DNA of 60,217 bases, filler included. It is 4 parts of 4 records of this genome, joined end to end, with 100 filler letters (N's around TTAATTAATTAA, not from the genome) between each part and the next. Parts side by side here need not be neighbours in the genome. Positions count along the whole stretch, not along the records: positions 44,233 to 60,217 come from SRR31156797_543; 3 more parts are not named here. One strand, 5' to 3'. Of this stretch, positions 44,233 through 60,217 are shown piece by piece (within the stretch, counting starts at the first letter, position 1; each line of letters opens with the position of its first letter). Made by a program: the position numbers and the translations under genes. Below the pieces are notes generated by a model. It did no database searches. It saw only the letters and a program-made list of their open reading frames with translations, and was not told the DNA's origin.

Positions 44233-44325
44233 GAATTCATGGGTGGCCTCATCCAGTCCCAGTTTCTCCGCTGCATTATCCAGTTGTTTTTGGGCAATAT
44301 GGAAAGGGTTCAGGCTTTCTTTCAT
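44233..44325 (-). CDS. Glu/Leu/Phe/Val (glutamate) dehydrogenase, first 31 codons only (not in the ORF track)
   Basis: Translates MKESLNPFHIAQKQLDNAAEKLGLDEATHEF, a typical GDH N-terminus; ATG overlaps the GATase TGA. Confidence 0.65.
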
Positions 44326-45041
44326 TCTTTGCTCCTGTTTTTGAATTCTTGGTCCATATTGTCAAGGATTGTCGCCATCAACCAGTATGTATCCGGGATT
44401 TTCTGGGTCTGATCGAGGACGGTTTCCTTGCCCGAAACAAACTTTCCCTTTATCCACCGGTGACCGTATTTCCTGGCAAAAAAGTCGGCCATTTCACGGG
44501 TAATTTCGGGATGAAACTGCAGGCCCGCCAAAGGACGATCTTTGCAGATAAAGGCCTGGTTTGAAGTCGGTTCGCTTTGGGCCAGGCGGGTGCAGCAGGG
44601 GGGCAGGGAGAAATGATCGCCGTGCCAGTGAAAAGTGAGAAACTTTTTTGGAATATTCTTGAAAAGGAACGATTTTTCCCCTTCAGGCGTTAAAGAAACG
44701 TCGAACCATCCGATTTCCGGTTCCTTGTTGCGGAAAACCTCCCCACCCAGGGCTTCGGCCATGAGTTGAGTTCCGAAACAGATGCCCAGGATAATCTTTT
44801 CCCGCTCCAGCGACTCGGCGATGAATGCCTTTTCGGGAACGAGCCACGGGTGTTTTTTCTCATCCCATGCATGCTGGGAGCCGCCCATGATGATCAGCCA
44901 GTCAAAATCATCGCATGAGGGGAGCTTTTCGTTGTTGCAGAGATATGTTTCAGCGATCTCATACCCTTTTTCCTGGGACCAGATGGCGATGTTATCCGGT
45001 GAAAAATCGACTGGATCGTGTTGTAACAGATGGATTTTCAT
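44322..45041 (-). CDS. Class I glutamine amidotransferase-like hydrolase, copy 1
   Basis: MGG, GICFG (Cys nucleophile), EIGW, WHGD, QFHPE (His-Glu). Confidence 0.9.
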   Translation of the reverse strand: MKIHLLQHDPVDFSPDNIAIWSQEKGYEIAETYLCNNEKLPSCDDFDWLIIMGGSQHAWDEKKHPWLVPEKAFIAESLEREKIILGICFGTQLMAEALGGEVFRNKEPEIGWFDVSLTPEGEKSFLFKNIPKKFLTFHWHGDHFSLPPCCTRLAQSEPTSNQAFICKDRPLAGLQFHPEITREMADFFARKYGHRWIKGKFVSGKETVLDQTQKIPDTYWLMATILDNMDQEFKNRSKE

Positions 45042-45130
45042 GAATACTCATGGTTGTGCGCCGCCTGGTTCAAGCCCGGTAAGCAGGTGGCGTGAGGATA
45101 AGAAAAATGAGCCATACAAAGATTATATCA

Positions 45131-45313
45131 TCACGATCGATTTTTGCAAAGCAGAACGGATTCGGACAAAAAAAACCCATAACAATCATCCTGCTTAAGG
45201 CCTGTCAGGGAGTATCCGGATATGGTCCTGAGGGCCGTGGTTGCACCGGTGCCATTGCCCACTATAATGGTCGCAATTTCCCCGTTTTCCACATTTGCTT
45301 GTGTCGTCATCAT
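45131..45313 (-). pseudogene. Probable 5' remnant of an FAD/NAD-dependent oxidoreductase
   Basis: IATIIVGNGTGATTALRTI resembles a decayed IIGNGxAG.TA..TI Rossmann start; coherence is lost after about 40 codons. Confidence 0.3.
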
Positions 45314-45374
45314 GTCACCTTTTTTTATTGGCCGATGCTGTCAAAAATGCCCGTATTTCTTTTGTGAGGGAGAC

Positions 45375-46277
45375 CTAACAGATCGGGCAGGGAAACTGTC
45401 CGTATTCAATCAGGTAGGCGCTCAGAGTGACGGCCACCAGATCAGCTGAGCCGCCGGGGCTTAGACCTTGTGAAATCATGTTCCGATCCAGTTGTTTCAA
45501 TTTGCTCCGTCCCGCCTGCGTGAAAAGGCTCCCCGCCTTGATGATATCCAGGGAAGCCCTCTGAGTTTCCCGCAGTTTTGCCATGTTTGATCGCCAAACA
45601 ATGGTTGAATCCTCTGATCCGGCCATTATGGATATCAAGGTGTGAAGCAGACATTCGTTCAGCGCCAAACCCCGTTCCAAGGATTCCATAAGGGCCGGCA
45701 TTCCGAATTCCGAGACGGTTTGAAATCCGGATTCCACCTCCCCCCGAATGCCGGTTATGCCGTATTTCAGAAACAATTGCTCCCCGGCGGTCAATTTGGG
45801 TTTATCAACCTGCAGATGTTTTAACTCCCTCTCCACCAACCCTTCCGTGATACGCCTCACCTGCCTGAAAATGGCGTGTACGACCCGACTTTTTGCTTTG
45901 CGCGAAACCACGCCCGCGGCAGCGCAAAGAACGGCGCCTGAAAAGAGCAGCCCTCTCTGTGTGTTGATGTTTTTGGTGGAGTGTAACAATTCTTTTTCAA
46001 ATTCAACGCCTATTTTTCTCAAGGTGTTGAGTAGTTGTTTGATCTCGCCTTGATGGTTTCTGCCCGCCTGGGCTGAAATGTAGAAAGCCGGTGCGATAGC
46101 AGCCGAACTTGCCATGAACGTCATAATACTCATGTCCCCATGGGCGCCGGGTGAATCATGGCAAACCAGCCCGGGCTTATTAGCGGCGGCGGCTTCCAGG
46201 AGAACCCCTTTGAGGACAGCACCGCCGATTTCCCATGATCCGGGGTCGATTTCAAGGTCTTCTATTGTTTTTGGCAT
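45375..46277 (-). CDS. mdcB: Triphosphoribosyl-dephospho-CoA synthase (MdcB/CitG)
   Basis: KPGLV, GAHGDM, NTQRGLLF, TAGE, GIRGE, LSPGGSADL. Confidence 0.92.
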   Translation of the reverse strand: MPKTIEDLEIDPGSWEIGGAVLKGVLLEAAAANKPGLVCHDSPGAHGDMSIMTFMASSAAIAPAFYISAQAGRNHQGEIKQLLNTLRKIGVEFEKELLHSTKNINTQRGLLFSGAVLCAAAGVVSRKAKSRVVHAIFRQVRRITEGLVERELKHLQVDKPKLTAGEQLFLKYGITGIRGEVESGFQTVSEFGMPALMESLERGLALNECLLHTLISIMAGSEDSTIVWRSNMAKLRETQRASLDIIKAGSLFTQAGRSKLKQLDRNMISQGLSPGGSADLVAVTLSAYLIEYGQFPCPIC

Positions 46278-46987
46278 AAGGCCACCACTTCCGTTCTCGG
46301 GATCAATCGGACGGTTTTCAACCCTTTCCCAAGAATGAGGGCGTTGCCGTTCATTATTTCTTTGATGCTCACACCAAATCCGGAGGGGAGATCGATTTCA
46401 ATATCAACACGTAACCGATGACACTCTCCTATTGCCAATACCGATTTGGTAAAATCGAATAGGGTTGCCAAACGGGTTGCCTTTATCACGATATCCAGAT
46501 CGGAGCCTTCATGGGTATAGGGTTGGCCGGTATGGATTTCCAGCGCGGCCGATCCCCATACGCCCACTTCAAGACCCGCTTTTTGTCCGAAATCTTTAAT
46601 TGCGTGCAAAGCGGCCAGGCAGCCGGTTCTAACGCTTTTGTGGGATTTCAGTACCTGGTAGGGAGAGGTTACCGTTTCGATCTCCTTTTCGTGAATAAAC
46701 GTGGCCCCCCGCAGACGTCTACCCTTTTTGATGAAAGGGGATGAGAATCCTATCGGAACAAGGCCGTCACGTGTTTTACCTTCTTGGCGGCGAATGATCC
46801 CCGGCAACCAGGCGCCCCCGTATTTTTGAGCGATGAGTGTCGTCATAACCGGTGCTTCCGGTGCGTCTCCAAACCTGTCGAGATAAGATTTTACAGCCCC
46901 ATAACGGCCGGTTTTCGTTATCTCCACGAGATCGTGCCGTTTCAGTAACCGGAGATTTATGGCTGTTTGAGTTTCCATCCATACCAT
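46262..46987 (-). CDS. mdcG: Malonate decarboxylase holo-ACP synthase (phosphoribosyl-dephospho-CoA transferase)
   Basis: RHDL, PGIIRR, GVWGSAALE, SDLD, RVDIE; located in the mdc cluster. Confidence 0.88.
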   Translation of the reverse strand: MVWMETQTAINLRLLKRHDLVEITKTGRYGAVKSYLDRFGDAPEAPVMTTLIAQKYGGAWLPGIIRRQEGKTRDGLVPIGFSSPFIKKGRRLRGATFIHEKEIETVTSPYQVLKSHKSVRTGCLAALHAIKDFGQKAGLEVGVWGSAALEIHTGQPYTHEGSDLDIVIKATRLATLFDFTKSVLAIGECHRLRVDIEIDLPSGFGVSIKEIMNGNALILGKGLKTVRLIPRTEVVALCQKQ

Positions 46988-47022
46988 CAGGCCCCCAATT
47001 CTAAGGGCAAAAAAGGCGTTGG

Positions 47023-47910
47023 TTAGATGTAACGGGAGGCGATGGCCTCAAACTCTTTGTCCATACCATCGATTATTTCCGCGCGTATTTGACGCCCACC
47101 CCGTTTTTGACCGAGCAGGCCGCGGCCCCAGGGCCCCAGTTCATCCGTCCGGCCTTCGGCTTTGGCGGCTCTGATTGCATTTATATTTTCCAGCACGGCC
47201 CGGCGAAGATGATCAATATCCTCCACGATTTCTTCGACACCGCCCAACCGGTAAAAGAAATCCACACCTGCCGCAAAAACCGGATTGTCTTTGGCCAAAA
47301 TTTCGAGATTGTCCATGGGGATCTTGGTGATTCTGGAAATGCTGGTGAGCGGCATGACGTGAATCATGGTGTTGAATTTTTTTGAAAGGGAAATGATGCG
47401 GTCCGCCTGCAATCCGTGACACAGAAAACCACCACTGATGGCGCGTCCGATGATGACGGCCAGAACGGGATGGCCTATTTTTCTGGCTTTTGCAAGTGCC
47501 AACTGATATTCTCCGGTGGCTTTATGGATGCCGAGTATCTCCTCTTTTTTGCCGGCGCCGTTTCCCGGGGTGTCTACCAAGGCCACGATAGGCCGTTTTT
47601 CGGAAGGGGGTTTGTCCGCATCGGATTCAATGGTCCAATAAACCGCAATGGCCATTTTGTAAGCTTCCTCCAATCCGATCAATCCTGCAAACACCACCTT
47701 GAAACGAGGATTGACGACCCTTGCATCATTAGCAATCAGGGTTGCTTTTTGTTCTTCTAAAGTCCCTGTGCCGATGACCGCACAGGGGCCGATGTCCGGT
47801 TCGAACCGATGCCCCTGGATGACGTTCTCCTCGAAAGAATCGGCGTCTGCAATTAACGCCATGGCTTTCCTTCCCATACCTATCAAACTGTTACGGCTCA
47901 CGGGCATCAA
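47023..47910 (-). CDS. mdcE: Biotin-independent malonate decarboxylase gamma subunit
   Basis: RPIVALVDTPG, EE.LG, GHPV, GRAISGGFLCHGLQA, HVM. Confidence 0.88.
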   Translation of the reverse strand: MMPVSRNSLIGMGRKAMALIADADSFEENVIQGHRFEPDIGPCAVIGTGTLEEQKATLIANDARVVNPRFKVVFAGLIGLEEAYKMAIAVYWTIESDADKPPSEKRPIVALVDTPGNGAGKKEEILGIHKATGEYQLALAKARKIGHPVLAVIIGRAISGGFLCHGLQADRIISLSKKFNTMIHVMPLTSISRITKIPMDNLEILAKDNPVFAAGVDFFYRLGGVEEIVEDIDHLRRAVLENINAIRAAKAEGRTDELGPWGRGLLGQKRGGRQIRAEIIDGMDKEFEAIASRYI

Positions 47911-49213
47911 CTCCTTTCTTTTCTTCCTTTTTGCGCCTTTTGGCAGAGGCCATAAACCGTGTCAGGTCCATTTCGGGCAGGTCCAGCGGTGCTTTGTTGC
48001 CAAAATGGTTCCACAGGTCTTTCGCATCACTGATGCCGATTTCCGTTGCGGTCTTGACCAGGGCCAACTGTTCACGGGCCAGATCCAGGGTTCCGATGGC
48101 GCGTAGCGTTGCGAATTGGTCGCGCGGCAAATCCAGGATTTTTAAAATCCGGGATCGAAAAGCTGAGATTTTGTCGCTAACCAGAAAATTGCCGTCATTT
48201 AGAATATATCTGTGTTTACCTCCCGTGGTCCGGTAAATCAGTGCCCGATCGCTGGCGTCAAGCTCTTGTTTTCCGATTTCCTGCTCTATCACTTCCGGAC
48301 CTGTCAGACCGAGACGTCCCAAGGGGTTCATGATCACCGCATCAGCGGAGGCTGCCACAAATCCCATTCCGCCGAAACATCCCACTTTGCCCCCTATGAG
48401 CGCCAGGACCGTAACTTTTCCCCGGGCGTCCTGAAGCAGATCCATCATTTCCGCGTGAGCCAGCAGGCCGGCGTTGGCTTCATGGAGCCTTACGCCGCCG
48501 GTGTCAAAGGAAATGATGATCGCAGGGCGGCGGGATTCAAGAGAAGCCGGATGTTTTGACGCCAATCGGTCATAGCTTTTCAAAGCCAGCTTCATGGCGG
48601 CAACCATTTTGGCGCCCCCCACTTCACCCACTGCGCCACCGATAAACCGGGATTCTTGAGATATGACAAAAACGGGCCTTTTCACCATCAGTCCGATGCC
48701 CGTGACCATTCCATCGTCAAAAGAGACCGCTTCTCCCAGAACCGGCAGGTGGGGGCTGATGGAACGGCTTTTAGGCCCCAGCAATTCAGTGAAGCTCCCT
48801 TCATCAACCAGACCGATGGCTCTCTCCCGTGCGGTAGTCTCGGAAAATATTTCTTTTTGAAGTTCTTCCCATGTGCGGTCGCCTGTAAGCGCTTGATCCA
48901 ATCGCTTAAGATCTTCGAAAGCCTGCCAAAGTCGGGTTCTGACAACCAGCGGCGTGGCGTAATTGTCATTTATTTCCACCAGAACGTTGCCCAGTTTGCT
49001 TTTCTGGAAAAATTGCTGCAGCACAATGAACCAGAGTTTTTCATAACCTTCCGCGGGTGTTTTGACGATGGCCTTTGCATTGCCTTTGAAGTTTCTTTTT
49101 TCTACAAAAATCTCCATATCACCGGAACCGACAACCCCCACATGGGTCGCTGTCTTTGCGGGTTCTTGTGATTCCTTTATTTCAAAATCGAACCGATATT
49201 CTTGAAGCGCCAT
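47891..49213 (-). CDS. mdcCD: Fused malonate decarboxylase acyl-carrier (delta, MdcC) + beta subunit (MdcD)
   Basis: aa ~1-105 carry GVVGSGDME (ACP Ser) and INDNYATP.VV..RL.QA; then ARERA..LVDEGSF.ELLGP, DDG, GGAVGEVGGAK, GGVRLHEAN, GCFGG, GLTGPEVIE. Confidence 0.88.
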   Translation of the reverse strand: MALQEYRFDFEIKESQEPAKTATHVGVVGSGDMEIFVEKRNFKGNAKAIVKTPAEGYEKLWFIVLQQFFQKSKLGNVLVEINDNYATPLVVRTRLWQAFEDLKRLDQALTGDRTWEELQKEIFSETTARERAIGLVDEGSFTELLGPKSRSISPHLPVLGEAVSFDDGMVTGIGLMVKRPVFVISQESRFIGGAVGEVGGAKMVAAMKLALKSYDRLASKHPASLESRRPAIIISFDTGGVRLHEANAGLLAHAEMMDLLQDARGKVTVLALIGGKVGCFGGMGFVAASADAVIMNPLGRLGLTGPEVIEQEIGKQELDASDRALIYRTTGGKHRYILNDGNFLVSDKISAFRSRILKILDLPRDQFATLRAIGTLDLAREQLALVKTATEIGISDAKDLWNHFGNKAPLDLPEMDLTRFMASAKRRKKEEKKGVDAREP

Positions 49214-49225
49214 CTTTTCTCCCCA

Positions 49226-50896
49226 CTACCAGTTGCGAAACCTCGTTGGCGGATGGTACAAACCCTTTGACCAGTTGACCAGATCCTTGACGCTTTTGGC
49301 TGCAAGCAGCGACTTATTGGCCCGGGTATAATCTATATCCAGATCTTCCGGCGTCCGAACCATGCCCCTTCTTCTAAGCTCATGGGTTACCCGGGGATCG
49401 GCTTGGAGACCTGCCTCCGTGTATCCGGCCACGGCTCTTACGGCGGCCGTTCGTTCTTCACTGCTGGTGCATTTGTGCAGATAGGCAATTCCCTCTTCCG
49501 TCACGACATGGGTTAAGTCATCGGCGTAAATCATGACAGGGGGAATGTTAAGGCCTGATTGGCGGGCGAGTTCCCATGCGTCCAGATCTTCAACAAATCC
49601 TGGAGTGAGTTTCTCCCTGAAGGTGTCCTGCAGCTGAACAACCAGTTTTTTCCCACGCGGAATGCCTCCCGTGAGTTCATCGTTCATAGCGTATTCCGTT
49701 CCGCATTTATGCCAGGCGCTTGAATGATGCCGACGTCCTTTTGCATCGCAACCCATGTTGGGAGCACCGCCGAAACCGGTGATTCTGTCTGCGGTGGCCG
49801 TGCTGCTGTTTCCGTGCCGATCAATCTGCAATGTGCCTCCGATGAACATGTCGGTTGCATAATGGCCCGCCATCTGAGCAAACGCCCGATTTGATCGCAA
49901 TGAGCCGTCGGGACCGATGAAAAATATATCAGGGCGCGCCATAACGTATTCTTCCATGCCCAACTCCCCCCCGAAGCAGACGATGGATTCAACCCACCCC
50001 GATTCAATAGCCGGGATAAGGGTGGGATGGGGGTTCAGTGCAAAATGGGTGCAGATTTTTCCCTTGAGTCCCAATTCTTCACCATAGGTCGGTAGAAGCA
50101 GCTCGATTGCCGCAGTGTCGAAACCGATTCCGTGATTGAGACTTTTCACCCCGTATTCGGCGTAAATACCTTTGATGGCCAACATGGCCCTCAGTATCTG
50201 AGCATCGGAAATAAGGGCGGGATCGCGGGTAAACAGCGGTTCCATGTAAAACGGGAAAGGGGACTGGACCACAAAGTCCACCCATTCACCCGGAATATCA
50301 ACACGTTGTACCTTATCAACGATTTCATTGACTTGTGCAACCACAATGCCGTTTTTGAATTTGGTCGCTTCAACGATAACCGGAGTATCCTCCGTGTTGA
50401 AACCGGTGTAAAGATTTCCATGCCTGTCGGCCTGGTAGGCGGCCACCAGGGCTACGCGCGGCGTCAGGTCGACGAATAGCCGGCCGAATAACTCCAGGTA
50501 GGTGTGAATGGCCCCCAATTCTATCTTGCCTTCTTTAACAAAAGTCGCCAGTTTCTCCGCTTGAGGTCCGGCAAAAGCGAAATCCACCTTTTTAGCAATC
50601 CCTTTTTCAAATATCTCCATGTGGCTCGGCAATGCGAGAACCGACTGAATCATGTGAAGATCGGAAACCTTTCGTGCATCGAGCTTGCACAGAGATTCCG
50701 AAAGAAAATCGGCCTGTTTCTGGTTATTTCCTTCAATGGTAATTCTATCTCCAGAATGTACCACCGATTCCAACAGTTCGACCACATTGTCCGGTGAGAC
50801 AATCTTCCCGTTTTCAAGCAGGGACTCGGATGAGGCCAATCTGCGGTCCCTGTCTTTTTTCAGGGAATCCCAGCAGTCTGAATTGTCGTTGCGCAT
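49226..50896 (-). CDS. mdcA: Malonate decarboxylase alpha subunit (malonate/acetyl-ACP transferase)
   Basis: EGNNQKQADFL, IHTYLEL, NTEDTP, LNHGIGFDTAAIELLLPTYGE, GFGGAPNMG, C-terminal PPTRFRNW. Confidence 0.95.
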   Translation of the reverse strand: MRNDNSDCWDSLKKDRDRRLASSESLLENGKIVSPDNVVELLESVVHSGDRITIEGNNQKQADFLSESLCKLDARKVSDLHMIQSVLALPSHMEIFEKGIAKKVDFAFAGPQAEKLATFVKEGKIELGAIHTYLELFGRLFVDLTPRVALVAAYQADRHGNLYTGFNTEDTPVIVEATKFKNGIVVAQVNEIVDKVQRVDIPGEWVDFVVQSPFPFYMEPLFTRDPALISDAQILRAMLAIKGIYAEYGVKSLNHGIGFDTAAIELLLPTYGEELGLKGKICTHFALNPHPTLIPAIESGWVESIVCFGGELGMEEYVMARPDIFFIGPDGSLRSNRAFAQMAGHYATDMFIGGTLQIDRHGNSSTATADRITGFGGAPNMGCDAKGRRHHSSAWHKCGTEYAMNDELTGGIPRGKKLVVQLQDTFREKLTPGFVEDLDAWELARQSGLNIPPVMIYADDLTHVVTEEGIAYLHKCTSSEERTAAVRAVAGYTEAGLQADPRVTHELRRRGMVRTPEDLDIDYTRANKSLLAAKSVKDLVNWSKGLYHPPTRFRNW

Positions 50897-50999: not shown

Positions 51000-51035
51000 A
51001 ATTTTGACAGCGGCTTTCAAACCGCTGTCAAAATT
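51000..51035 (-). terminator. Probable intrinsic terminator / stem-loop between dctP and mdcA
   Basis: Perfect 14-bp inverted repeat AATTTTGACAGCGG-N8-CCGCTGTCAAAATT, 60 nt downstream of the dctP stop; the U-tract is short. Confidence 0.65.
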
Positions 51036-51094: not shown

Positions 51095-52186
51095 CTATAG
51101 GAAATATTTTTTGAAATATTTTGAACGTTCGGCATAAAGTCGACTTTCGTATAATTCCCTATAGCCCGACGCTTTTTTGGAGAAGGCAAAGAAGCTGTCC
51201 TGTACTTTAGCAACCGTCTTGCTCTTCGCCCGCGCTTCATCCATCACTTCTTTACTTGCCTTGCGCAAAGCATCCCAGACGGAATCGGGATATTCACCAA
51301 TGGTGACTGTTTTCACCGATCTAATTTTTTCCAATGCTATTACGCTGGCATACAGGTTATCGGCATGGAGGAGATCGGTTTCCGCTCCGGCAGCAACCTC
51401 AATGATGAGTTGAAGGTGTTTATCCAAGCTGTCCCAGGCCTTTTTATTGATGCCAAATTCGATTCCACCGTGGATGTCCGAGAAAGAAGGCGTGTACATA
51501 TGGGTCATGACTTTTTGGAAACCGAAAGCCAAATCCTGAGCAGGACCAACCCATTCAGCTGCATCCAGCGCACCACTTTGCAGGGACGGGAATATTTCAC
51601 TGGGTGGCATAGAGACAGGGTTCACACCGATTTTTTTCATGACTTGAGCCCCAAACCCGGTGATACGGAAGTTCAGACCCTGCATGTCTGAGAGGGATTT
51701 GATTTCTTTCTTAAACCAACCGCCGGTTTGAACACCCGTACCGCCTCCTGTGAAGACTTTAAGACCACGGGGCAGGGTGAAGTCATCCCATAGTTTTTGG
51801 CCGCCACCATGGCGGAGCCAGGCGTTAAACTCAGTATAATCCAGACCGAACGGTACAACGGAGAAAAAACTATGGGCGGGGTCACGTCCGGCGAACCATG
51901 AGCCGGAACCGTGATAGATTTCCGCAATACCGTTTTCCACGGCTTCCTGCGTGGCGAAGGGTGGAACCAACTCCCCACCGCCGAACACTTTGATTTTCAG
52001 TTGTCCTCCGGACATTTCGGTGACGCGTTTAGCAAATCGCTCTGCCGAGACGCCTGGTCCCGGTAGCCCTTTGGGCAGGGAGGTCACAAGTTTCCATTTT
52101 TTTGTACCGGCAAGAACGGTTGACGGTGCGATAAGAGCGGCTGCCCCCGCAACTGCGGTACCTTTGATAAAGTCGCGTCTTTTCAT
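51095..52186 (-). CDS. dctP: TRAP transporter substrate-binding protein (DctP, TakP-like) with Tat signal
   Basis: MKRRDFIKG twin-arginine signal, GGELVP, GGWFKKEI.S..D..GL.FR, LDAAEWVGP..D. Confidence 0.9.
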   Translation of the reverse strand: MKRRDFIKGTAVAGAAALIAPSTVLAGTKKWKLVTSLPKGLPGPGVSAERFAKRVTEMSGGQLKIKVFGGGELVPPFATQEAVENGIAEIYHGSGSWFAGRDPAHSFFSVVPFGLDYTEFNAWLRHGGGQKLWDDFTLPRGLKVFTGGGTGVQTGGWFKKEIKSLSDMQGLNFRITGFGAQVMKKIGVNPVSMPPSEIFPSLQSGALDAAEWVGPAQDLAFGFQKVMTHMYTPSFSDIHGGIEFGINKKAWDSLDKHLQLIIEVAAGAETDLLHADNLYASVIALEKIRSVKTVTIGEYPDSVWDALRKASKEVMDEARAKSKTVAKVQDSFFAFSKKASGYRELYESRLYAERSKYFKKYFL

Positions 52187-52232: not shown

Positions 52233-53807
52233 CTACTTGTAAATTACTCCCGGCAACCAGGTTGCGATTCCTGGAAAAACGGCCACCAACCCAAGCGCTA
52301 ACAATTGAATGATGACAAAAGGGATGATCCCCTTATAAATATCCAAAGTTGTCAGGTTTGGCGGCGCCACTGAACGTAGATAAAACAATGAATATCCGAA
52401 AGGCGGTGTCATAAAGGACATTTGCAGATTCAAGCTGATCAGGATTGCGAACCAGACAGGGTCGATGCCCGCTGCCATGAGCGGTGGTCCCGCTATGGGG
52501 ATAACGATAAAGATAATTTCGATATATTCCAGAATAAAACCGAGGAAAAAAATGACGACCATTACGGCCAACAGGGCGGTTGGGGCGCCTCCCGGCAGGG
52601 ATGTTAAAATGTCGGAAACAATGTCGTCTCCCCCCAGACCGCGAAACACCAGGGACAGCATAAAGGCACCGATAACGATCATAAGAATAGATGCCACCAT
52701 GGTTGCCGTCATTTTAGCCACCAGGAATAGATCACCGTTACGAAGTTCCTGGTACACGGCAACTAAAAATCCACAGATCAAAACCAAAAAAGCACCGCTT
52801 CCGACGATCAGCCTTATGTTTACACCGCTATGCATCGGTATTGTACCCGTCAAACGCAGGAGCAGCAGCGCCAAAGCCGAAACCCACACGGCAATATAGG
52901 ATCGACGAATCCATTTGGATATGTCCTGTCGATTCAATCCGACCAATAACAACGCGCCTCCGGCACCCAATGCTGCCGATTCCGTGGGTGTTGCCACCCC
53001 TCCCAATATGGACCCCAGCACCAATACGATCAGCATCAAGGGCGCAAGCAGCGCTTGTACAATGTTCTTGAATGTAAGCGTATCCCCCATTCCTTCAATC
53101 TGCGCCACCTTGATCGGAGGACAGCTTTTCGGGCGCAGGTGGGAGATGATGAAAGTGTAGAGCAGATAGAGCCCTACGAGCAGCAATCCCGGCAGCATGG
53201 CGCCGGCGAAAAGATCGCCGACAGATACCGGATCCGCTGCCCATTCGCCCGCGGCGCGGCGGCCGCTTTGATAAGCCGTAGAGACCTGATCCGTCAGCAA
53301 AATCAAAAGAATGGATGGCGGAATGATTTGACCCAGCGAGCCGGAGGCGCATATCACCCCCGCTGATAAACGATTTGAGTAATTGCCTTTCATCATGGCG
53401 GGCAAAACGATCAATCCCATCATAAAAACCGTTGCGGCTATTAAACCGGTTGAGGCCGCCAGAAGAGCACCGACGATAATCACGGCATAAGCCATGCCGC
53501 CGTGTCTATTGCCAAACAAAGCCCCGGCTGTAAGCATCATCTTTTTGGCGATTTGCGACTTTTCCAATAATGCGCCCATAAGGACAAAAAGGGGTACGGA
53601 AATAATGACCGGGTTTGTCAGGATTCCAAAAACTCGCGAGGGGAACGCAGCCAGGAAAGCAATATCGAAAACATCGAAGATCGCTCCGATCACAGCCAAC
53701 AAAAAGGGAACCGCCATCAGCACAAAGGAAACCGGAAGGCCTGAGAGAATACCGCCCAGAAGGGTGATGGTAAGGACAATTAGCATAACCTCATGAACGC
53801 TCATCAT
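52233..53807 (-). CDS. dctM: TRAP transporter large permease
   Basis: PLFVLMG, ASGSLGQIIPPS, ATPTESAA, TPPFG.SLFYL; many TM helices. Confidence 0.92.
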   Translation of the reverse strand: MMSVHEVMLIVLTITLLGGILSGLPVSFVLMAVPFLLAVIGAIFDVFDIAFLAAFPSRVFGILTNPVIISVPLFVLMGALLEKSQIAKKMMLTAGALFGNRHGGMAYAVIIVGALLAASTGLIAATVFMMGLIVLPAMMKGNYSNRLSAGVICASGSLGQIIPPSILLILLTDQVSTAYQSGRRAAGEWAADPVSVGDLFAGAMLPGLLLVGLYLLYTFIISHLRPKSCPPIKVAQIEGMGDTLTFKNIVQALLAPLMLIVLVLGSILGGVATPTESAALGAGGALLLVGLNRQDISKWIRRSYIAVWVSALALLLLRLTGTIPMHSGVNIRLIVGSGAFLVLICGFLVAVYQELRNGDLFLVAKMTATMVASILMIVIGAFMLSLVFRGLGGDDIVSDILTSLPGGAPTALLAVMVVIFFLGFILEYIEIIFIVIPIAGPPLMAAGIDPVWFAILISLNLQMSFMTPPFGYSLFYLRSVAPPNLTTLDIYKGIIPFVIIQLLALGLVAVFPGIATWLPGVIYK

Positions 53808-54319
53808 ACCTCCTCATCCGATTTATTCTGGTAAATCCAAGGCTGCTTTTTCAGCGCAAGAACCAACGAAATCAGGGACATGCCGGAAAAGCACAAGAAA
53901 AGAATGGTTTTAAGCAAGAAATAACCCGGCAGACCATCAAGGGTCGGAGATGATTCAAGCAGGCGCCAGGAATTAAGCATGGGGCCCCAGGTAACATAGG
54001 CCGCATAGCCGGCTGAGGGAAAAAGCAAAAATGCGAGTCCGAATCGATCTAAAACCGTCTTCTTTTCAGGGCTGTAGCCATGGTAAAACACGTCAACCCG
54101 CACATTATGGTTTTCCAAAATTACCAAGGGGAGCGGCAAGAGCGATCCAACCAGAAACAGATAGACCAAAAGGTCGAGTCCCCAGGATACCCCATAGGAA
54201 AATATATAACGAAGAATCACTATTACGACCTGAATAACGCCAAGCGCAATGATCGCTGCACCCGCAACGGATAAGGCGCCGTTGGCTATCCTGCTTAACA
54301 CTCCATTTTGCTCTGTCAT
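53804..54319 (-). CDS. dctQ: TRAP transporter small permease
   Basis: Four TM helices, V.LRY.F, HNVRVDVFY; ATGA-type overlap with dctM. Confidence 0.85.
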   Translation of the reverse strand: MTEQNGVLSRIANGALSVAGAAIIALGVIQVVIVILRYIFSYGVSWGLDLLVYLFLVGSLLPLPLVILENHNVRVDVFYHGYSPEKKTVLDRFGLAFLLFPSAGYAAYVTWGPMLNSWRLLESSPTLDGLPGYFLLKTILFLCFSGMSLISLVLALKKQPWIYQNKSDEEV

Positions 54320-54475: not shown

Positions 54476-55978
54476 TTAAGACAAGGGAGGGACTCTCTTC
54501 GTCAACTCAGATACCTGTTCATAAGCGTTGGCAAGCTGCAGAACTTTCAAATCCTTTGTCGCGGGACCCATTATCTGCATGCCCATGGGCAATCCTATGC
54601 TATTGAATCCCACCGGAACCGTTATGATAGGGCAGCCCGAAAGTGTTCCCGGTATGGTGATTTCCATCCAACGATGGTAGGTATCCATGGTTTTCCCCGC
54701 CACCTCTTTCGGCCAATGAATATTAGCATCAAAGGGGAAAACCTGGGCTGCTGGGAGCAGCAGATAATCGTATCGGGTAAAGAGACCGGCAACCGTTTGG
54801 TACCATTCTGAACGATCAACCGATGCATGATATGCATCAGAGGCATTCAGGGCGAGTCCTCCCTCAATTTCCCATATGGCCTCCGGTTTCATTTTATCGC
54901 GGTTTTCTATTTTGGCATACAATGGTCCGGCGATACCGGCAATTAGCCAGTGACGTAGGGTAAGCCAGGTCCGCCATAATTTTTCCATCGGATAATCAAC
55001 TGTCAAGGACTCCACCATGCAACCCAGGCGTTCAAAGTGTTTAAGTGAGCTTTGACACATCTCAAGGATACCCGGTTCCATCGGTAGATAGCCGTTGAAA
55101 TCACCTAGCCAGGCAATTTTTTTGCCTTTCATATCAACCTGTAAGTTGCCTGCAAACTGCCGTGGATCTTCACTGATTGACAAGGGTATGCGAGAATCAA
55201 AACCTGCCATGGTTGACAAGAGCATGGCAGTATCTCTCACGGTGCGTCCCATGGGCCCTTCATAGCCCAATTGCTGCGAGAAAATTTCTGTTGTAGGCCC
55301 AAAAGGAACGCGACCAAAGGAGGGCCGAAAACCGATGATGTTGTTATAAGCGGCCGGGTTTCTAAGGGAACCCATCATATCGCTGCCGTCCGCCACGGGA
55401 AGCATCCTTGTTGCAAGGGCAACAGAGGCGCCGCCACTGCTGCCGCCCGCACACAATTTAGGATCATAGGCGTTATAGGTGGTTCCAAATACATTGTTGT
55501 AGGTTTGTGAACCCAATCCGAATTCAGGCGTATTGGTTTTACCAATAATAATAGCACCGGCTTTTTTTAATCGCTCAACAAAGATGGCATCATGCTTTGT
55601 GATCTCATTTGCCAATAGCGGCGACCCCATGGTTGTGGGGATGCCTTTAGTCGCTGCGAGGTCTTTTACGGCATGGGGAAAGCCGTGCATCCAGCCATGA
55701 TAAATATCTTTAGCGAGTTCTGAATCTTTTTGAACAGCTTCGGAAAGCAGCTCATCACGATTACGCAGAGATATGATTGCATTAAATGTCGGATTAACCT
55801 TGTCAATTTGGGCAAGATAGGATTTCATTACATCCAAACATGACACGGCCTTGTTTTTGATGGCATCCGATAATTCCACAGCGTTGAGATCGACGATATC
55901 CGATAGGGTCCCTTCACCGGCACCTGCGGAAAAAGGGTGGTCCTTGTTAATGCTCTCCGGATCTTTTTGATTATTCAA
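54476..55978 (-). CDS. Amidase-signature family amidase
   Basis: AVKDL (Lys), GKTNTPEFG, GGSSGG (cis-Ser), GSDMMGSLRNPA (Ser nucleophile); TTG start with AAGGAG upstream. Confidence 0.92.
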   Translation of the reverse strand: MNNQKDPESINKDHPFSAGAGEGTLSDIVDLNAVELSDAIKNKAVSCLDVMKSYLAQIDKVNPTFNAIISLRNRDELLSEAVQKDSELAKDIYHGWMHGFPHAVKDLAATKGIPTTMGSPLLANEITKHDAIFVERLKKAGAIIIGKTNTPEFGLGSQTYNNVFGTTYNAYDPKLCAGGSSGGASVALATRMLPVADGSDMMGSLRNPAAYNNIIGFRPSFGRVPFGPTTEIFSQQLGYEGPMGRTVRDTAMLLSTMAGFDSRIPLSISEDPRQFAGNLQVDMKGKKIAWLGDFNGYLPMEPGILEMCQSSLKHFERLGCMVESLTVDYPMEKLWRTWLTLRHWLIAGIAGPLYAKIENRDKMKPEAIWEIEGGLALNASDAYHASVDRSEWYQTVAGLFTRYDYLLLPAAQVFPFDANIHWPKEVAGKTMDTYHRWMEITIPGTLSGCPIITVPVGFNSIGLPMGMQIMGPATKDLKVLQLANAYEQVSELTKRVPPLS

Positions 55979-56001: not shown

Positions 56002-57720
56002 TCAGTCAAATGCACCGCCGCTTTCGTCAAAGACGATCTCGCCGCCGACAAGGGTCATCAGTACCGGGATTTCACCGATTTTGTGAGCATCAACGGAAAG
56101 AATATCATCTCCGATAATACAAAAATCAGCGAATTTACCCACCTCTATGGACCCCTTTGCTTCTTCCATATGGTCTTGCCAGGCGCCGTTTATGGTATAG
56201 GTGCGGATGGCCTCTTCCACGGTAATGCACTCTTCCGGACCACTCACCTTTCCGGAAACCAAACCTTCTCTCAAAACCGCGGCCTGAACGCCCAACCGCC
56301 AATTGGGGTAGGTGACCGGAGCGTCGGAGTTGCTTGTGAGGTTAATGCCGGCATCCAGCACCGTCCGTGTGGGCCACTCGTAGGCTGCTCGTTCTTCTCC
56401 GATTACGGCAGGTTCAAAGTCGGCGATCATGGCACTGATGAAAGGCTGCATGGCGATTCCGCAGTCCAATTTGGCCATGAGTTCGGCTTTTTCCGGACTT
56501 ATAAGGTCTCCATGGATGACATAGTGACGAGGATCATCTCGGGGCATTTCCTTAATGGCTTCCGCAAAACCGTCCAGTGCGGTGTCAATAGCCCTGTCTC
56601 CCGTGGCGTGAATGCCGATCTGAAAATCATGCCGGTGCACCAGTTTGATCATTGCAACGAGATTATCGTATTGCTCCTGGTCAGTATCTCCGGGGATGAC
56701 CGATCTGCCGTGACCCGCGTCTCCGCTCACATAATCCTCGTTCATCCATGAGGTGTAGGTCAGCGGGATGCCGTCGGCGAAAATCTTAACGCCCGGAAAC
56801 TGAAGCCGGGCTTTGTCCAGGTTCGTCGGGACCTTAAAGGTCTCAAGGCCGTTTTTGAGATCCTCATAAGTCAGGGAACCATAATCTCCCAGGAGTAACA
56901 AAGCGGTGACACGGGCCGTCAGTTTCCCCTCTTTCAGCAGTTCCTGGTAAAGATCGACGAAATCGGCACTCATGACGCCATATAGGAATGTCTCGCCCCC
57001 GGGGCCGATGGCAGCGTCCGTGAAACTTGTCACCCCATTGGCATTGAGGTGGGTCAGAGCTGTCAGCAGCGCCGTTTTCTTCTCCTCCCGGGTCAATAGG
57101 GGCACATACGCTGACACGAGCGCCTGGGCCCCGGGCTCTTTGAAAATGCCGGTTGGCTCTCCGTTTTCATCCCTTTCCATCTCGCCTGACGGCGGGTCGG
57201 GCGTGTCCTTGGTGATTCCGGCTATCTCGAGCGCCTTGCTGTTGACCAGCAAGGTATGGACCGAAAAATCCGTAAAGGCGACCGGGTGGTCCGGCGACAC
57301 GGCATCCAGATCCCACTTCCTGGGCAGCATGGAGGGATCATTTTTGCATTCTTCAAGGGAACCCTGGTCCCAACCGAAGCCGCGAATCCAGTCGCCTGGT
57401 TTGGCCTTTTCCACTTCACTTCCAAGCGTATCCACCAACTCCGGGATCGACTTAACCGCCGGATAGGTTAGATCAAGGGCGAGGGGCGGTCTGGTAGCTC
57501 CGAAAAAGGGCGCATGCATGTGTGACTCGTTGATGCCGGGAAGAATTGTTTTTCCCTTGAGATCCAGGATTTTGGTGTCGGACCCTATGAATGCCTTTAT
57601 TTCGTCATTTGCGCCGACAAACAAAATTTTACCATCCTGAACAGCCACCGCCTGCTTGATACTAAAGTCTTTGTCTACAGTGATGACTTTGCCGTTGGTG
57701 ATAACTAAATCAGCTTCCAT
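56002..57720 (-). CDS. YtcJ-like metal-dependent amidohydrolase (Amidohydro_3)
   Basis: PGINESHMH, GFGWD, KIFADG, HATGDRA, VIHG, NSDAPV, YTINGA, GSIEVGKFADF; ATG 57720 with GGAGGG ribosome-binding site. Confidence 0.9.
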   Translation of the reverse strand: MEADLVITNGKVITVDKDFSIKQAVAVQDGKILFVGANDEIKAFIGSDTKILDLKGKTILPGINESHMHAPFFGATRPPLALDLTYPAVKSIPELVDTLGSEVEKAKPGDWIRGFGWDQGSLEECKNDPSMLPRKWDLDAVSPDHPVAFTDFSVHTLLVNSKALEIAGITKDTPDPPSGEMERDENGEPTGIFKEPGAQALVSAYVPLLTREEKKTALLTALTHLNANGVTSFTDAAIGPGGETFLYGVMSADFVDLYQELLKEGKLTARVTALLLLGDYGSLTYEDLKNGLETFKVPTNLDKARLQFPGVKIFADGIPLTYTSWMNEDYVSGDAGHGRSVIPGDTDQEQYDNLVAMIKLVHRHDFQIGIHATGDRAIDTALDGFAEAIKEMPRDDPRHYVIHGDLISPEKAELMAKLDCGIAMQPFISAMIADFEPAVIGEERAAYEWPTRTVLDAGINLTSNSDAPVTYPNWRLGVQAAVLREGLVSGKVSGPEECITVEEAIRTYTINGAWQDHMEEAKGSIEVGKFADFCIIGDDILSVDAHKIGEIPVLMTLVGGEIVFDESGGAFD

Positions 57721-57821
57721 GTTGTTCCCTCCCTTCAATTTGGTTTGATTAATGAGTCATGCTTCCACCTTTCGGGGCAGATCATGTGTTAAAATGGCCT
57801 GCATTATTATTTGGACTCCAT

Positions 57822-58005: not shown

Positions 58006-58108
58006 TTACTTATCTTATTTTTCTCCAACATGATATCTGAACAGAATTCCGGTGCGCTTGGCATTATATTACCTTGAGGATCCTTCCCCCAGGTGAATAT
58101 AGGCTATT

Positions 58109-58813
58109 TTAACCGAATTCCTTAAGTGTGTTCTCAAGCAAAGTTTCCATAAGCGGATAGGTATCCGGAATCTGTTCGGTCCGCGCCAGCACACCCTCTT
58201 TACCGTCGACAAACGGACCCTGTTTCCATTCATGTCCATATTCCATTGCGAAAAAGGCGACCAGTTCCCGGGTGTACTCAGGATGAAACTGTACCCCAAC
58301 CACCGGGCGGCCGTCGCAAATAAAAGCCTGATTGGCGGTGGGTTCGCTAAAGGCCAGCCGGGTGCACCCCGGGGGCAATGAAAAGTGGTCGCTGTGCCAG
58401 TGAAAGGTCACAAATGTTTCCGGAACATTTTTAAAAAGGCATGATTCTTTGCCCTCCGGGGTCAGAAAGACCTTGTTCCAGCCGATCTCTTCATGTTTGT
58501 TGGGAGAGACCTTGGCTCCCAGGGCTTCCGCCACGAGTTGGGCCCCAAAGCAGATCCCAAGGATGATTTTCCCCTCGGCGAGAACGTCGGCGATAAATTT
58601 CTTTTCTCCCGGCAGCCATGGTTTGGTCTCTTCTTCCCAGACATGCTGGGACCCCCCCATGACCATCAGCCAGTCGAAGTTATCTATTTGGGGCGGATCT
58701 TCCATTTTGAAAACATCCGTCTTAGAAACTTTATAACCTTTTTTCTCCGCCCAAATGGCGATATTGGAGCGTGAGAAATCAATGGGATCATGCTCTAACA
58801 GGTGCAGTTTCAT
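58109..58813 (-). CDS. Class I glutamine amidotransferase-like hydrolase, copy 2
   Basis: GICFG, QFHPE; collinear paralog of 44322-45041; start ATG 58813 follows the RidA stop by 1 nt. Confidence 0.9.
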   Translation of the reverse strand: MKLHLLEHDPIDFSRSNIAIWAEKKGYKVSKTDVFKMEDPPQIDNFDWLMVMGGSQHVWEEETKPWLPGEKKFIADVLAEGKIILGICFGAQLVAEALGAKVSPNKHEEIGWNKVFLTPEGKESCLFKNVPETFVTFHWHSDHFSLPPGCTRLAFSEPTANQAFICDGRPVVGVQFHPEYTRELVAFFAMEYGHEWKQGPFVDGKEGVLARTEQIPDTYPLMETLLENTLKEFG

Positions 58814-58814
58814 A

Positions 58815-59231
58815 TTAATTCCTATGGACCATGTATGAGCCGATAATCGCGTCGGCCTCAATCTCCACCAAATGGGCCGGCCTTGCCAGGGCCTTCACTT
58901 CGGCCAACATGGTCACCGGTTTGATCTCTTTGAAAAACTCGGAATAGGCCCTCATGTACTCCTGAGTCTTCTGGATGTCGGTTACATATATGCGGACCCG
59001 GTACACTTCGGACAGCTTTGCCCCAGCCTTGGATAAGGCCTGCTCAATCTTTTGCAGGATGATCTTGGCCTGGAGGTAGGCGTTGTTTTCGCCCTCCACC
59101 ACTCCTTCGGGACTGGTGGACGTGGTTCCGCCCACAAAAACAAAATTTCCCACTTTGACCGCCCGGCTGTACCCTACCTTATCCTCCAGGGGCGCCCCGG
59201 ACGAAAAGTTCTCCCTCCTCAATAAATCCAT
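58815..59231 (-). CDS. RidA/YjgF family protein
   Basis: GYSRAV, VFVGGTT, RVRIYVTD, LVEIEADA. Confidence 0.88.
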   Translation of the reverse strand: MDLLRRENFSSGAPLEDKVGYSRAVKVGNFVFVGGTTSTSPEGVVEGENNAYLQAKIILQKIEQALSKAGAKLSEVYRVRIYVTDIQKTQEYMRAYSEFFKEIKPVTMLAEVKALARPAHLVEIEADAIIGSYMVHRN

Positions 59232-59594
59232 TTTTTATTTCTCCCCACTGTGAATTATGACTTCGCTTTGCCGCCGGACAAGGACGGGGCGCAACCAGAA
59301 GAGGTATACACTCGATCCACTTGCCTAAAGCCTTGGCCTTTAGCCGTTCAATTTCTTCAGCCTTTTAACCACTCCTAATGAATTGGCTTATTGATCGTGC
59401 TGCCCCCCCGATGTTTGAAGGCCCGTCTGTTTGATGTGTCGTAAAATTACCGCAACAAGCGACTTGATTGTTGAGAAGGGTAAGAAGCTGCAGGACAGTG
59501 GGAGTTTCTGCTGCCCTGCAATCATCTATTCTATTTGCGCTTGTATTTCCTATTTAGGCATGGTTTTTTTTCAGCGACTCCAATCGATAGAGGT

Positions 59595-60217
59595 CTATAA
59601 ACGCCAAAATTCCGATTGCAGCTTAATATTCTTAGCCAACCAAGCCTTTTCGGACTCAGACGCCTCTGTCGGTAGAACGGGGATCCCCGCGAAGGGGTTC
59701 GGCACCCCGGAATCCTGGCCGCTCAATGCTTCAATGATCCTCAGGGTGCAAAAAGGCACATAGGCAGGGGAATAACCGCCCTCCTGAAGAGCTACCAAGC
59801 GTCCGTTGCAGTTGCGCTCGGCAATACCTTTCACCACAGAGGCAAATTTACCAAACCCTGATGGGGTCACCTGCATCCGCGCCAACGCGTCGAACAGGTT
59901 GGGATCCTGCCCCGCCGATATCAGCACCAGCTCAGGCTTGAATTGGTCGGCAATGGGAACCACTATTTTCTCCATGGCATAAACATATGCCGCATCTCCA
60001 CCGCCGGCAAGCATGGGGATGTTGACATTAAAACCACGCCCTTTATCTTTTCCGATATCCTTGATCATTCCCCGGTTCGGCGGGTAGTAGTTGTTCTGAT
60101 GGAGTGAAATGAACAGGGTGTTGGGGTCAGCGTAAAAAGCGTCTTCGGTCCCGTTCCCATGGTGAACGTCCCAATCCAGAATCATGATGCGTTTCAGCCC
60201 GTATTTCTGTCGAGCAT
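59595..60217 (-). CDS. Histone-deacetylase family (class II-like) deacylase/amidohydrolase; 5' end outside the window
   Basis: Frame open to the window edge (ARQKYGLKRIMILDWDVHHGNGT); SLHQ, NIPM, SAGQD, QEGGY. Confidence 0.9.
   Translation of the reverse strand, partial: ARQKYGLKRIMILDWDVHHGNGTEDAFYADPNTLFISLHQNNYYPPNRGMIKDIGKDKGRGFNVNIPMLAGGGDAAYVYAMEKIVVPIADQFKPELVLISAGQDPNLFDALARMQVTPSGFGKFASVVKGIAERNCNGRLVALQEGGYSPAYVPFCTLRIIEALSGQDSGVPNPFAGIPVLPTEASESEKAWLAKNIKLQSEFWRL

Follow-up and report, generated by a model that had tools for sequence, protein, structure and literature searches.

A possible malonyl-amide route linking a TRAP importer and an amidase to a malonate decarboxylase in a Desulfobacterales-like bacterium

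The window examined in this work is a stretch of 60,217 nucleotides in which four contigs are joined by runs of N (17646-17745, 38493-38592 and 44133-44232). Its last contig, positions 44234-60217, is the subject of this text: it carries a block of malonate decarboxylase (mdc) genes next to a tripartite ATP-independent periplasmic (TRAP) importer, an amidase-signature (AS) amidase and a YtcJ-like amidohydrolase. These genes may form one route by which a malonyl amide is imported, hydrolysed to malonate and decarboxylated, a reading to which we assign a probability of roughly 0.5. The evidence that carries it comes from other genomes, in which an importer and an AS amidase stand beside malonate-consuming enzymes of an unrelated kind.

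Gene content and origin of the contig

The N-spacers at 44133-44176 and 44189-44232, which carry stop codons in all frames, mark 44234-60217 as a contig of its own. Open reading frame (ORF) and family scans found 15 genes on it, all on the minus strand and in the order given by a first-pass annotation of this DNA. Genes were called using Pfam and NCBIfam profiles, and the NCBIfam scores are given against the family cut-offs. In order of transcription, the features are the following.

59595-60217, minus strand: histone deacetylase (HDAC)-family deacylase of the arginase/deacetylase fold (Hist_deacetyl E 3.8e-52, profile 136-297 of 298; 0 NCBIfam matches); C-terminal 206 residues only, the 5' end being lost at the contig end
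58815-59231, minus strand: RidA/YjgF-family imine/enamine deaminase (Ribonuc_L-PSP E 3.7e-25; TIGR00004 61.9 bits, below cut-off)
58109-58861, minus strand: GAT1, stand-alone class-I glutamine amidotransferase (GATase)-like protein (GATase E 1.3e-23, weak Peptidase_C26; Cys in GICFG, HPE motif); translation likely starts 16 codons into the listed ORF, at an ATG one base past the RidA stop
56002-57738, minus strand: YtcJ-like metal-dependent amidohydrolase (Amidohydro_3), 578 aa (PF07969 E 1.2e-89)
54476-55978, minus strand: AS amidase of the NF005686 (PRK07486) subfamily (Amidase PF01425 E 2.3e-88; NF005686 767 bits, cut-off 465)
53804-54319, minus strand: DctQ, TRAP small permease (Pfam DctQ E 1.4e-11)
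52233-53807, minus strand: DctM, TRAP large permease, 524 aa, long form (TIGR00786 271.9 bits, cut-off 268)
51095-52186, minus strand: DctP, TRAP solute-binding protein of the TakP-like clade (DctP E 1.5e-45, with TAT_signal)
51000-51035, no strand assigned: hairpin formed by a perfect inverted repeat of 14 bp, within the 198 bp between dctP and mdcA, seen in the sequence
49226-50896, minus strand: malonate decarboxylase alpha subunit, MdcA/MadA, acetyl-ACP:malonate ACP transferase, ACP being acyl carrier protein (TIGR01110 950 bits, cut-off 789; PF16957 E 6.8e-282)
47891-49213, minus strand: fusion, 440 aa, of ACP (delta, residues 6-101) and beta carboxyltransferase (residues 114-427) (TIGR03130 90.7 bits, cut-off 84; NF005530 354 bits, cut-off 228)
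47023-47910, minus strand: malonate decarboxylase gamma subunit (TIGR03134 279 bits, cut-off 237)
46262-46987, minus strand: MdcG, holo-ACP synthase (phosphoribosyl-dephospho-CoA transferase; TIGR03135 119.7 bits, cut-off 99.7)
45375-46277, minus strand: MdcB/CitG-type triphosphoribosyl-dephospho-CoA synthase (TIGR03125 245 and TIGR03132 238 bits, just under cut-offs of 272-282)
44322-45041, minus strand: GAT2, second class-I GATase-like protein (NF005458 135.7 bits, below cut-off), 63% identical to GAT1 (146/233)
44234-44325, minus strand: glutamate dehydrogenase (GDH; Glu/Leu/Phe/Val-family dehydrogenase), first 30 codons, the rest being cut by the contig end; 23 of 30 residues agree with the N-terminus of an ELFV dehydrogenase of genome G005, and the fragment, too short, has no family match in the profile scan

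The GC content is 0.47-0.53 for this contig and 0.25-0.46 across the other three (about 0.38-0.46 for 1-17645, 0.25-0.33 for 17746-38492 and 0.35-0.39 for 38593-44132); because the others are much lower, the spread suggests a bin that mixes organisms. A 28,397-base Logan contig, from an independent assembly of the single public run with this DNA, spans the whole stretch under study with 0 differences and extends 12.4 kb past the HDAC end; since the two assemblies agree throughout, a mis-join by one assembler is unlikely. The run may itself be the source sample, hence it does not count as support from an independent sample. A chimeric assembly was also judged unlikely, given this 28.4-kb contig, the even GC along the contig and the Desulfobacterota-like genes on both sides of the mdc block. 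The proteins most similar to the amidase (up to 88-89% identical), DctP (85-92%), the YtcJ-like protein (79-80%) and RidA (69-74%) come from metagenomes and metagenome-assembled genomes (MAGs) titled Desulfobacterales, Desulfobacula, Desulfatiglandales or 'delta proteobacterium', and because of these relatives the host is, to judge by its proteins, a Desulfobacterales-like bacterium.

The importer, its amidases and malonate-consuming enzymes elsewhere

The order of importer and amidase recurs in a Desulfobacula MAG (G001), in which orthologues of dctQ (69% identical), dctM (80%) and dctP (86%) are directly followed by an orthologous amidase (74%). The DctP clade has a signature motif, YHGSGSWF, which is absent from the next clade, and a degenerate pattern on a second motif of the clade returned 39 stretches from the genome collection. 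Of these, 32 were true orthologues (DctP 49-89% identical), mostly from Rhodobacterales and Hyphomicrobiales and some from Desulfobacterales; DctM is 55-70% identical to its alphaproteobacterial orthologues. In 17 of the 32 loci, and in 13 of the 19 with at least 1.5 kb visible, dctP is followed within 1.5 kb by an AS amidase gene in the same orientation; two of the six exceptions hold an AS amidase elsewhere within the 8-kb stretch. The amidases paired with this TRAP belong to two lineages, which share 33-37% identity, the alphaproteobacterial amidases being 29-37% identical to that of the contig, and the lineage other than the contig's is used even in locus L212, where DctP is 75% identical. 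Because two amidase lineages are paired with one importer clade, these neighbourhoods argue that the transported compound needs an amidase.

In several Rhodobacterales and in Hoeflea, a gap of about 915-1,010 nucleotides separates dctP from the amidase gene (L213, L215, L221, L225, L228, L234 and L241, 917 nucleotides in the last). The Hoeflea gap (L234, 3873-4727) encodes a 284-aa TauE/SafE-family anion permease and represents a second operon type, without adjacent matAB; the TauE-like permease may export the acid product.

Four of the 32 loci contain a dctQMP-amidase-matA-matB operon: an alphaproteobacterial MAG (L249), a Thalassospiraceae MAG (L250), a MAG titled Blastopirellula (L251) and Leisingera sp. 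JC11 (L253). Their matA encodes malonyl-CoA decarboxylase (Pfam MCD 324.6 bits) and their matB malonyl-CoA synthetase (NF005702 790-807 bits, cut-off 558). A GntR-family homologue stands beside the operon in L250 and L253, and in strain JC11 an Amidohydro_3 gene lies next to the GntR gene. Plasmid NC_023136 of Leisingera methylohalidivorans carries an amidohydrolase gene beside a set encoding MarR, TAXI-TRAP, amidase, malonyl-CoA decarboxylase and malonyl-CoA synthase, in that order; this importer is non-homologous to ours, and the amidohydrolase is 28% identical to the YtcJ-like protein of the contig over the full length (E 8e-53). Full-length YtcJ relatives (27-28% identical) are thereby found beside importer-amidase-matAB operons at two Leisingera loci. 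The classical mat loci that we viewed contain no amidase, as in Sinorhizobium meliloti pSymA, where a GntR gene is followed by dctP-dctQ-(gap)-matA-matB; a Paracoccus mat locus has an SLC13 carrier, and in Pseudosulfitobacter matAB adjoins a divergent ATP-binding cassette (ABC) system and a gamma-glutamyltransferase gene. The amidase-bearing operon is a distinct variant of mat loci. Because an importer with an AS amidase, and in places an Amidohydro_3 protein, recurs beside malonate consumers of unrelated kinds, MatAB elsewhere and Mdc here, a route from an amide to malonate gains support. No description of an operon of importer, amidase and malonate enzyme was found in the open-access literature, subscription journals and supplementary files lying outside the search.

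We related DctP to solved structures of binding proteins. Its best solved relatives are 4yzz/4yic and TakP (2hzk), at E 1e-62 to 1e-64 (TakP E 1.6e-62), together with chain 7ug8, deposited as 'Ketoacid-binding protein'. DctP resembles TakP, the alpha-keto-acid binder of Rhodobacter sphaeroides, in that both belong to a clade of long DctP proteins exported by twin-arginine translocation (TAT) and share the residues of the sodium-pyruvate site. With residue roles in the carboxylate/sodium site and the pocket taken from the account of the site in PMC1839085, TakP Arg177, Gln156, Glu214 and Trp215 are kept in DctP as R174, Q153, E211 and W212, and Glu240 is conservatively replaced by D237; Arg177 makes a salt bridge, and the others, Trp215 through its carbonyl, form the cation site. 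In contrast, Tyr100, which makes a hydrogen bond, and Tyr99, Val97, Phe40, Ile47, V245 and P243 of the hydrophobic pocket correspond to W97, S96, S94, L37, P44, I242 and G240, and the altered loop (Tyr100/Tyr99/Val97 to Trp/Ser/Ser) is the signature motif of the clade. DctP also differs from TakP in its genomic partners, which are amidases and malonate enzymes. To go by these substitutions, DctP would fit a ligand that has a carboxylate and a nearby carbonyl and is more polar than an alkyl keto acid; malonamate and malonate would both qualify.

The amidase bears the GGSSGG motif, and its K105, S180/S181 and S204, which we take to be the catalytic triad of AS enzymes, are invariant across 22 close relatives. 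Malonamidase E2 of Bradyrhizobium japonicum, which converts malonamate into malonate and NH3, is likewise an AS enzyme, and its reaction is the last hydrolytic step proposed here. The parallel drawn to it by the first-pass annotation stood as far as the family is concerned, but the relationship is distant: malonamidase E2 matches the amidase with 71.8 bits (E 4.9e-19). Among 56 PDB matches it takes about rank 40, with about 39 other AS structures scoring above it, GatA and an aryl acylamidase (186 bits) among them. The best solved relatives of the YtcJ-like protein are the uncharacterised hydrolases 3icj/3igh, and its orthologues in G002 and G005 are 79-80% identical. Downstream of the TRAP-amidase operon of G001 (L191, 1942-6912) lie genes for an M20 amidohydrolase, an aldehyde dehydrogenase, a GNAT acetyltransferase and a DoeA-like M24 hydrolase, the last of which stays under the ectoine-hydrolase cut-off at 470 bits; further C-N hydrolases are thus found beside the same amidase.

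Type of malonate decarboxylase and its usual carriers

The Mdc/Mad core is complete on the contig, with alpha, ACP, beta, gamma and MdcG above the cut-offs and the MdcB/CitG models just under theirs. We compared it with 80 species-representative loci of MdcA relatives (62-73% identical, with 10 kb on either side); the closest MdcA relatives of all are 70-78% identical. For alpha, beta and gamma, the highest identities (66-73%, 54-62% and 56-61%, respectively) are to subunits from the 23 of 80 loci that have MadB, the membrane carboxybiotin decarboxylase and Na+ pump subunit, beside madA, as detected by tblastn with the MadB of L003 (TIGR03136 693 bits) at an identity of at least 60%. In the loci without MadB the medians are 43% for beta and 36% for gamma, the ranges against the proteobacterial loci being 37-47% and 32-39%. 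The NCBIfam 'biotin-independent' beta and gamma models exceed their cut-offs in the MadB-containing L003 as well, so that the name does not discriminate between the types. The single-frame ACP-beta fusion also occurs in L001, L005, L011, L014, L022 and L048; five of the MadB-bearing loci have it, and in L003 the two genes are separate. The MadB-type clusters (L003, 8152-18144, and 22 further loci) are common among gut and anaerobic Bacillota, Negativicutes, Desulfovibrionaceae and some Alphaproteobacteria.

Homologues of madL and madM (TIGR00807 and TIGR00808 in L003) are present in 22 of the 80 loci. In the 60-kb window, MadB, MadL, MadM and the 363-aa and 150-aa companion genes were not found. 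The 35 bp between gamma and mdcG leave no room for mdcH, the gene of a malonyl-CoA:ACP transacylase, and the rest of the contig has no ORF for it. The contig thus shares its nearest subunit relatives and the ACP-beta fusion with the Na+-translocating, biotin-dependent Mad system of the Malonomonas rubra type, but differs from it in having no MadB, MadL or MadM. With the biotin-independent Mdc (mdcABCDEGH of Klebsiella, Pseudomonas and Acinetobacter) it has in common the set of A, ACP, beta, gamma, MdcB and MdcG, whereas mdcH is absent, ACP is fused to beta, and a TRAP takes the place of MdcLM or MdcF; the four-subunit Mdc holoenzyme is as outlined in PMC5534430. From these comparisons, the decarboxylase is apparently of the Mad lineage, reduced to the subunits A, ACP-beta and gamma plus G and B, and the TRAP occupies the position normally taken by carrier genes.

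A TRAP close to malonate genes is in itself nothing unusual, a correction to the background given by the first-pass annotation, in which characterised mdc clusters usually carry MadLM or MdcF. In 24 of the 80 loci, mainly from Oxalobacteraceae (Herbaspirillum, Massilia, Duganella), the gene of a DctM-type permease of another clade (27-31% identical to ours) lies upstream of mdcA in the same orientation and ends at most 3 kb from it; the permease is likely a malonate importer, apparently an uncharacterised one. A malonate TRAP importer, MatPQM, is moreover on record beside matAB in Sinorhizobium meliloti (Chen et al. 2010, in the citations given by PMC5237526 and PMC13134296).

The proposed route and the readings weighed against it

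From these results, a route may be put forward in which the YtcJ-like protein, the AS amidase, the TakP-like TRAP and the mdc products act together, and the genes for RidA, the GATase-like proteins, GDH and the HDAC-like protein form a nitrogen-compound module; it is for this division that the odds are about even. The TRAP would take up a small anionic malonyl amide: malonamate, which is the simplest candidate, a malonamate bearing a ureido group or an N-substituent, or else a ring compound that is opened to such an amide. Hydrolysis in one or two steps, the amidase probably following the YtcJ-like enzyme, would give malonate and ammonia or an amine. MdcA would then load malonate on ACP, decarboxylation would yield acetate and CO2, and MdcB and MdcG would build the prosthetic group of the carrier. 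The flanking module would probably process the nitrogen-bearing moiety or else some related substrate. The identities and order of the genes are shown, as is the recurrence in other genomes of the linkage between importer, amidase and malonate enzyme; we infer the substrate class, the order of steps, co-regulation and the working of the decarboxylase without MadB. The absence of madL and madM from the mdc genes of the contig would leave the TRAP in the usual place of the malonate carriers. An earlier proposal that an imported malonyl amide is converted to malonate and on to acetate finds support for the link between TRAP, amidase and malonate enzymes (17/32 and 4/32 loci and the Leisingera plasmid), probably including the YtcJ-like protein, but not for the full gene set.

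Several observations weigh against this reading. No homologue of the AS amidase, the YtcJ-like protein or RidA was found within 10 kb of mdcA in any of the 80 genome loci, and none of 15 metagenome mdcA loci (58-77% identical) contained an amidase, YtcJ, RidA or TRAP; the metagenome pattern scan targeted the four MdcA relatives of highest identity (77-78%), whose contigs were not among the 15 loci returned. The expected recurrence of mdcA next to TRAP, amidase and YtcJ was thus seen in none of these 80 genome and 15 metagenome loci, and the linkage of amidase to mdc on the contig is unique so far. An alignment-based amidase scan yielded, among the matches listed, only relatives of 54-64% identity, and 0 of 80 loci around them hold TRAP or mdc genes; close relatives were sought with clade-specific degenerate patterns. 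An mdcA above cut-off was found in none of five Desulfobacterota genomes with close amidase relatives (74-83%), nor was an mdcA found in G006, G022 and G035, all of these being MAGs of uncertain completeness, in which absence is not proven. In G002, G003 and G004 the close amidase has no TRAP or malonate genes beside it, and in G002, G003 and G005 its neighbour is a PPDK_N-type protein or a similarly sized ORF. Adjacent matAB is missing in 28 of the 32 TRAP-orthologue loci, one operon type having the TauE-like permease instead. In G001 a divergently transcribed acyl-CoA ligase gene and a GntR/FCD regulator gene flank the TRAP-amidase operon. The ligase is a candidate malonate ligase and as such speaks for the route: its best solved match is MatB 4fuq (E 1.8e-96, next kind 7e-74), and its best NCBIfam match is malonyl-CoA synthase. 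This evidence is weak on its own, since the 440 bits of that match stay under the cut-off of 558 and generic ligases in G002-G004 reach 373-399 bits with the same model. No regulator gene was found on the contig, and the activity of a decarboxylase without MadB is assumed.

In the three Desulfobacterota genomes G002, G003 and G005, the ORFs next to the amidase gene are of 761-855 aa (L192, 11339-13891; L193, 6887-9454; L195, 11607-13892), and in G005 the scan identified PPDK_N, a PEP/pyruvate-binding domain. The amidase orthologue of G005 (L195, 10000-11507) lies in two overlapping frames, either a frameshifted gene or a long-read assembly error.

The same observations lend weight to a reading of the contig as independent neighbouring modules, in which the TRAP and the amidase would serve the amide of a small acid other than malonate, mdc would rely on a carrier encoded elsewhere, and RidA, the GATase-like proteins, YtcJ and GDH would be a third unit. 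It would agree with the counts of 0/80 and 0/15 for amidases at mdcA loci, with the 28/32 loci without adjacent matAB, with G006, which has a TRAP-amidase pair and in which neither mdcA nor MatB was found, and with the recurrence of RidA, YtcJ and GAT without malonate genes. Gene spacing has two sides. Within the core it is tight, which favours the joint route: YtcJ and amidase are 23 bp apart, dctQ and dctM overlap by 4 bp, dctM and dctP are separated by 46 bp, and the mdc genes by 12-35 bp or overlaps. RidA-GAT1, YtcJ-amidase, dctQMP, mdcA-B and GAT2-GDH make tight sub-blocks, separated by gaps of 363, 370, 156 (amidase-dctQ), 198 (dctP-mdcA, with the strong hairpin) and 333 bp, at which separate transcription, a further point against a single core, is possible. 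The hairpin at 51000-51035, suspected earlier of uncoupling mdc, is real, and together with its spacer it parts dctP from mdcA: the 198-nt spacer RNA has a minimum free energy of -66.9 kcal/mol (z -4.7), and 0 of 200 shuffles were as stable. An intrinsic terminator was not called there, the T-run being absent; possible roles of the hairpin are attenuation of read-through, protection of the upstream message and the binding of a regulator. Ahead of GAT2, the 333-bp gap contains a promoter-like TTGCAA-16-TATAAT, promoter-like matches being no commoner on the contig than chance: promoter and terminator scans gave 13 and 27 matches against shuffled expectations of 14.6 and 20.7, not above expectation, and a repeat search for a shared operator-like motif in the intergenic gaps found none. 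Independence is harder to reconcile with orthologous TRAP, amidase, matA and matB in one operon of four diverse genomes, with the fifth genome, which joins a different importer to amidase-matAB, and with an mdc block that has lost the madLM of its relatives and has a TRAP in that place. On balance we consider it unlikely, though it deserves real weight.

A further possibility is that the TRAP imports malonate itself, as MatPQM does, and that the amidase is accessory or unrelated. The mat genes (matRABC of Rhizobium leguminosarum, matPQMAB of S. meliloti) resemble the contig in having an importer by the malonate enzymes, often with a GntR-type regulator, according to the summaries in PMC5237526 and PMC13134296; they differ in using MatB and MatA instead of malonate decarboxylase and in the TRAP order P-Q-M, which is Q-M-P here. 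The published TRAP next to matAB, the pSymA locus without an amidase and the other TRAP clade directly upstream of mdcA in 24/80 loci all speak for malonate as the ligand, and malonate, a good chelator of cations, would fit the kept cation site. However, DctP is only 24% identical to the pSymA malonate-TRAP binding protein (E 1e-8), DctM only 27-31% to the mdc-linked permeases, and a plasmid search with DctP returned only relatives of at most 45% identity from other clades, with no Sinorhizobium plasmid match at E <= 1e-60. The retention of an AS amidase of two lineages in 17/32 loci is also hard to explain without an amide, which makes this explanation distinctly improbable.

The claim that five C-N-cleaving genes and GDH all feed the malonate decarboxylase found no support, in view of the 0/80 mdcA loci with an amidase and of flanking genes that recur without malonate enzymes. 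The co-directional cluster of G005 contains RidA (69%), YtcJ (80%), the amidase (78%) in its two frames, a GATase-like protein (about 59-60%) and an ELFV dehydrogenase, alongside another TRAP, a response regulator, a Liv-type ABC system and a PPDK_N-type protein. G002 has RidA (74%), the same other TRAP as G005, YtcJ (79%), a run of ABC-sized ORFs and a GAT2 orthologue (77%), with the amidase about 22 kb away. RidA orthologues head both clusters, and neither mdcA nor a MatB above cut-off was found in these two MAGs. Because RidA, YtcJ and GAT recur in two Desulfobacterota genomes that yielded no malonate enzymes, RidA, GDH and the GATase-like genes look like a separate, lineage-specific nitrogen-compound module, and its link to malonate is not supported. 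On the contig, the TakP-like TRAP and the mdc block stand in place of the other importers of the module. A pairing of GAT2 with GDH in G002 was rejected, as the ORF after the GAT2 orthologue is not GDH; the pairing recurs only loosely, in G005.

A pathway of all 15 genes for one nitrogen-rich malonyl compound, with the HDAC-like, GATase-like, YtcJ and amidase proteins each removing a group and GDH taking the glutamate, would account for the co-directional genes, for the translational coupling of GAT2 and GDH (stop and start overlapping as ATGA) and for GAT paralogues flanking the block. We regard it as very unlikely: in G002/G005, where no malonate enzymes were found, RidA, YtcJ, GAT and GDH accompany other importers, the HDAC-like gene recurs in none of the loci examined, those of the G002/G005 clusters included, and gaps of 333-370 bp separate the sub-blocks. 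Least probable of all is import of 2-oxoglutaramate or 2-oxosuccinamate, with the amidase as an omega-amidase giving 2-oxoglutarate or oxaloacetate, GDH/RidA leading on to glutamate and mdc unrelated, since TakP and 7ug8 among the best solved DctP relatives, the conserved cation and carboxylate ligands and GDH and RidA within the cluster are set against modest identity to TakP-type proteins, the altered pocket loop, orthologous operons that end in matA-matB and not in keto-acid enzymes, and a whole mdc block between TRAP and GDH.

To return to the malonyl-amide route, it could be one case of something wider. Malonate catabolism by Mdc, Mad and MatAB is already known, as is a malonamidase activity; we know of no explanation for the origin of environmental malonate or for the amidases in some malonate operons. 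Tentatively, and at odds well short of even, an undescribed and widespread module of anion importer, Amidohydro_3 protein and AS amidase might free malonate from a malonyl amide of the environment. The malonate consumer that it feeds would be exchangeable, being MatA/MatB in marine Alphaproteobacteria and a Mad-lineage decarboxylase in this anaerobe, and the amide might be malonamate, ureidomalonate, another ring-opening product derived from pyrimidines, or an N-malonyl amine. Spliced here into a glutamate-forming nitrogen module, it could let one nitrogen-rich malonyl compound supply carbon, nitrogen and possibly decarboxylation energy.

Barbiturase has the AtzD/cyanuric-acid-hydrolase fold and not that of Amidohydro_3. 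The oxidative pyrimidine pathway differs from the contig in this first enzyme, and its uracil dehydrogenase and urease genes are absent from the contig. In that pathway barbiturase and ureidomalonase lead to malonate and urea, and it is, according to PMC3758960, the only natural route described in which two successive amide hydrolyses end in malonate.

If the proposal is true, this cluster, along with the dctQMP-amidase-matA-matB operons that Leisingera and other marine bacteria carry, would define a malonyl-amide route that ties the release of amide nitrogen to malonate decarboxylation. It would also provide a ligand class for an uncharacterised clade of TakP-like TRAP binding proteins, and a function for members of two very large and mostly uncharacterised families, the PRK07486-type amidases and the YtcJ-type amidohydrolases. 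The hypothesis is directly testable because cultured Leisingera strains carry the analogous operon. At one such locus, two IS110 transposase genes follow the TAXI-amidase-matA-matB operon (L255, 11216-16024) on a mobilizable plasmid, which hints at a module that moves as a unit.

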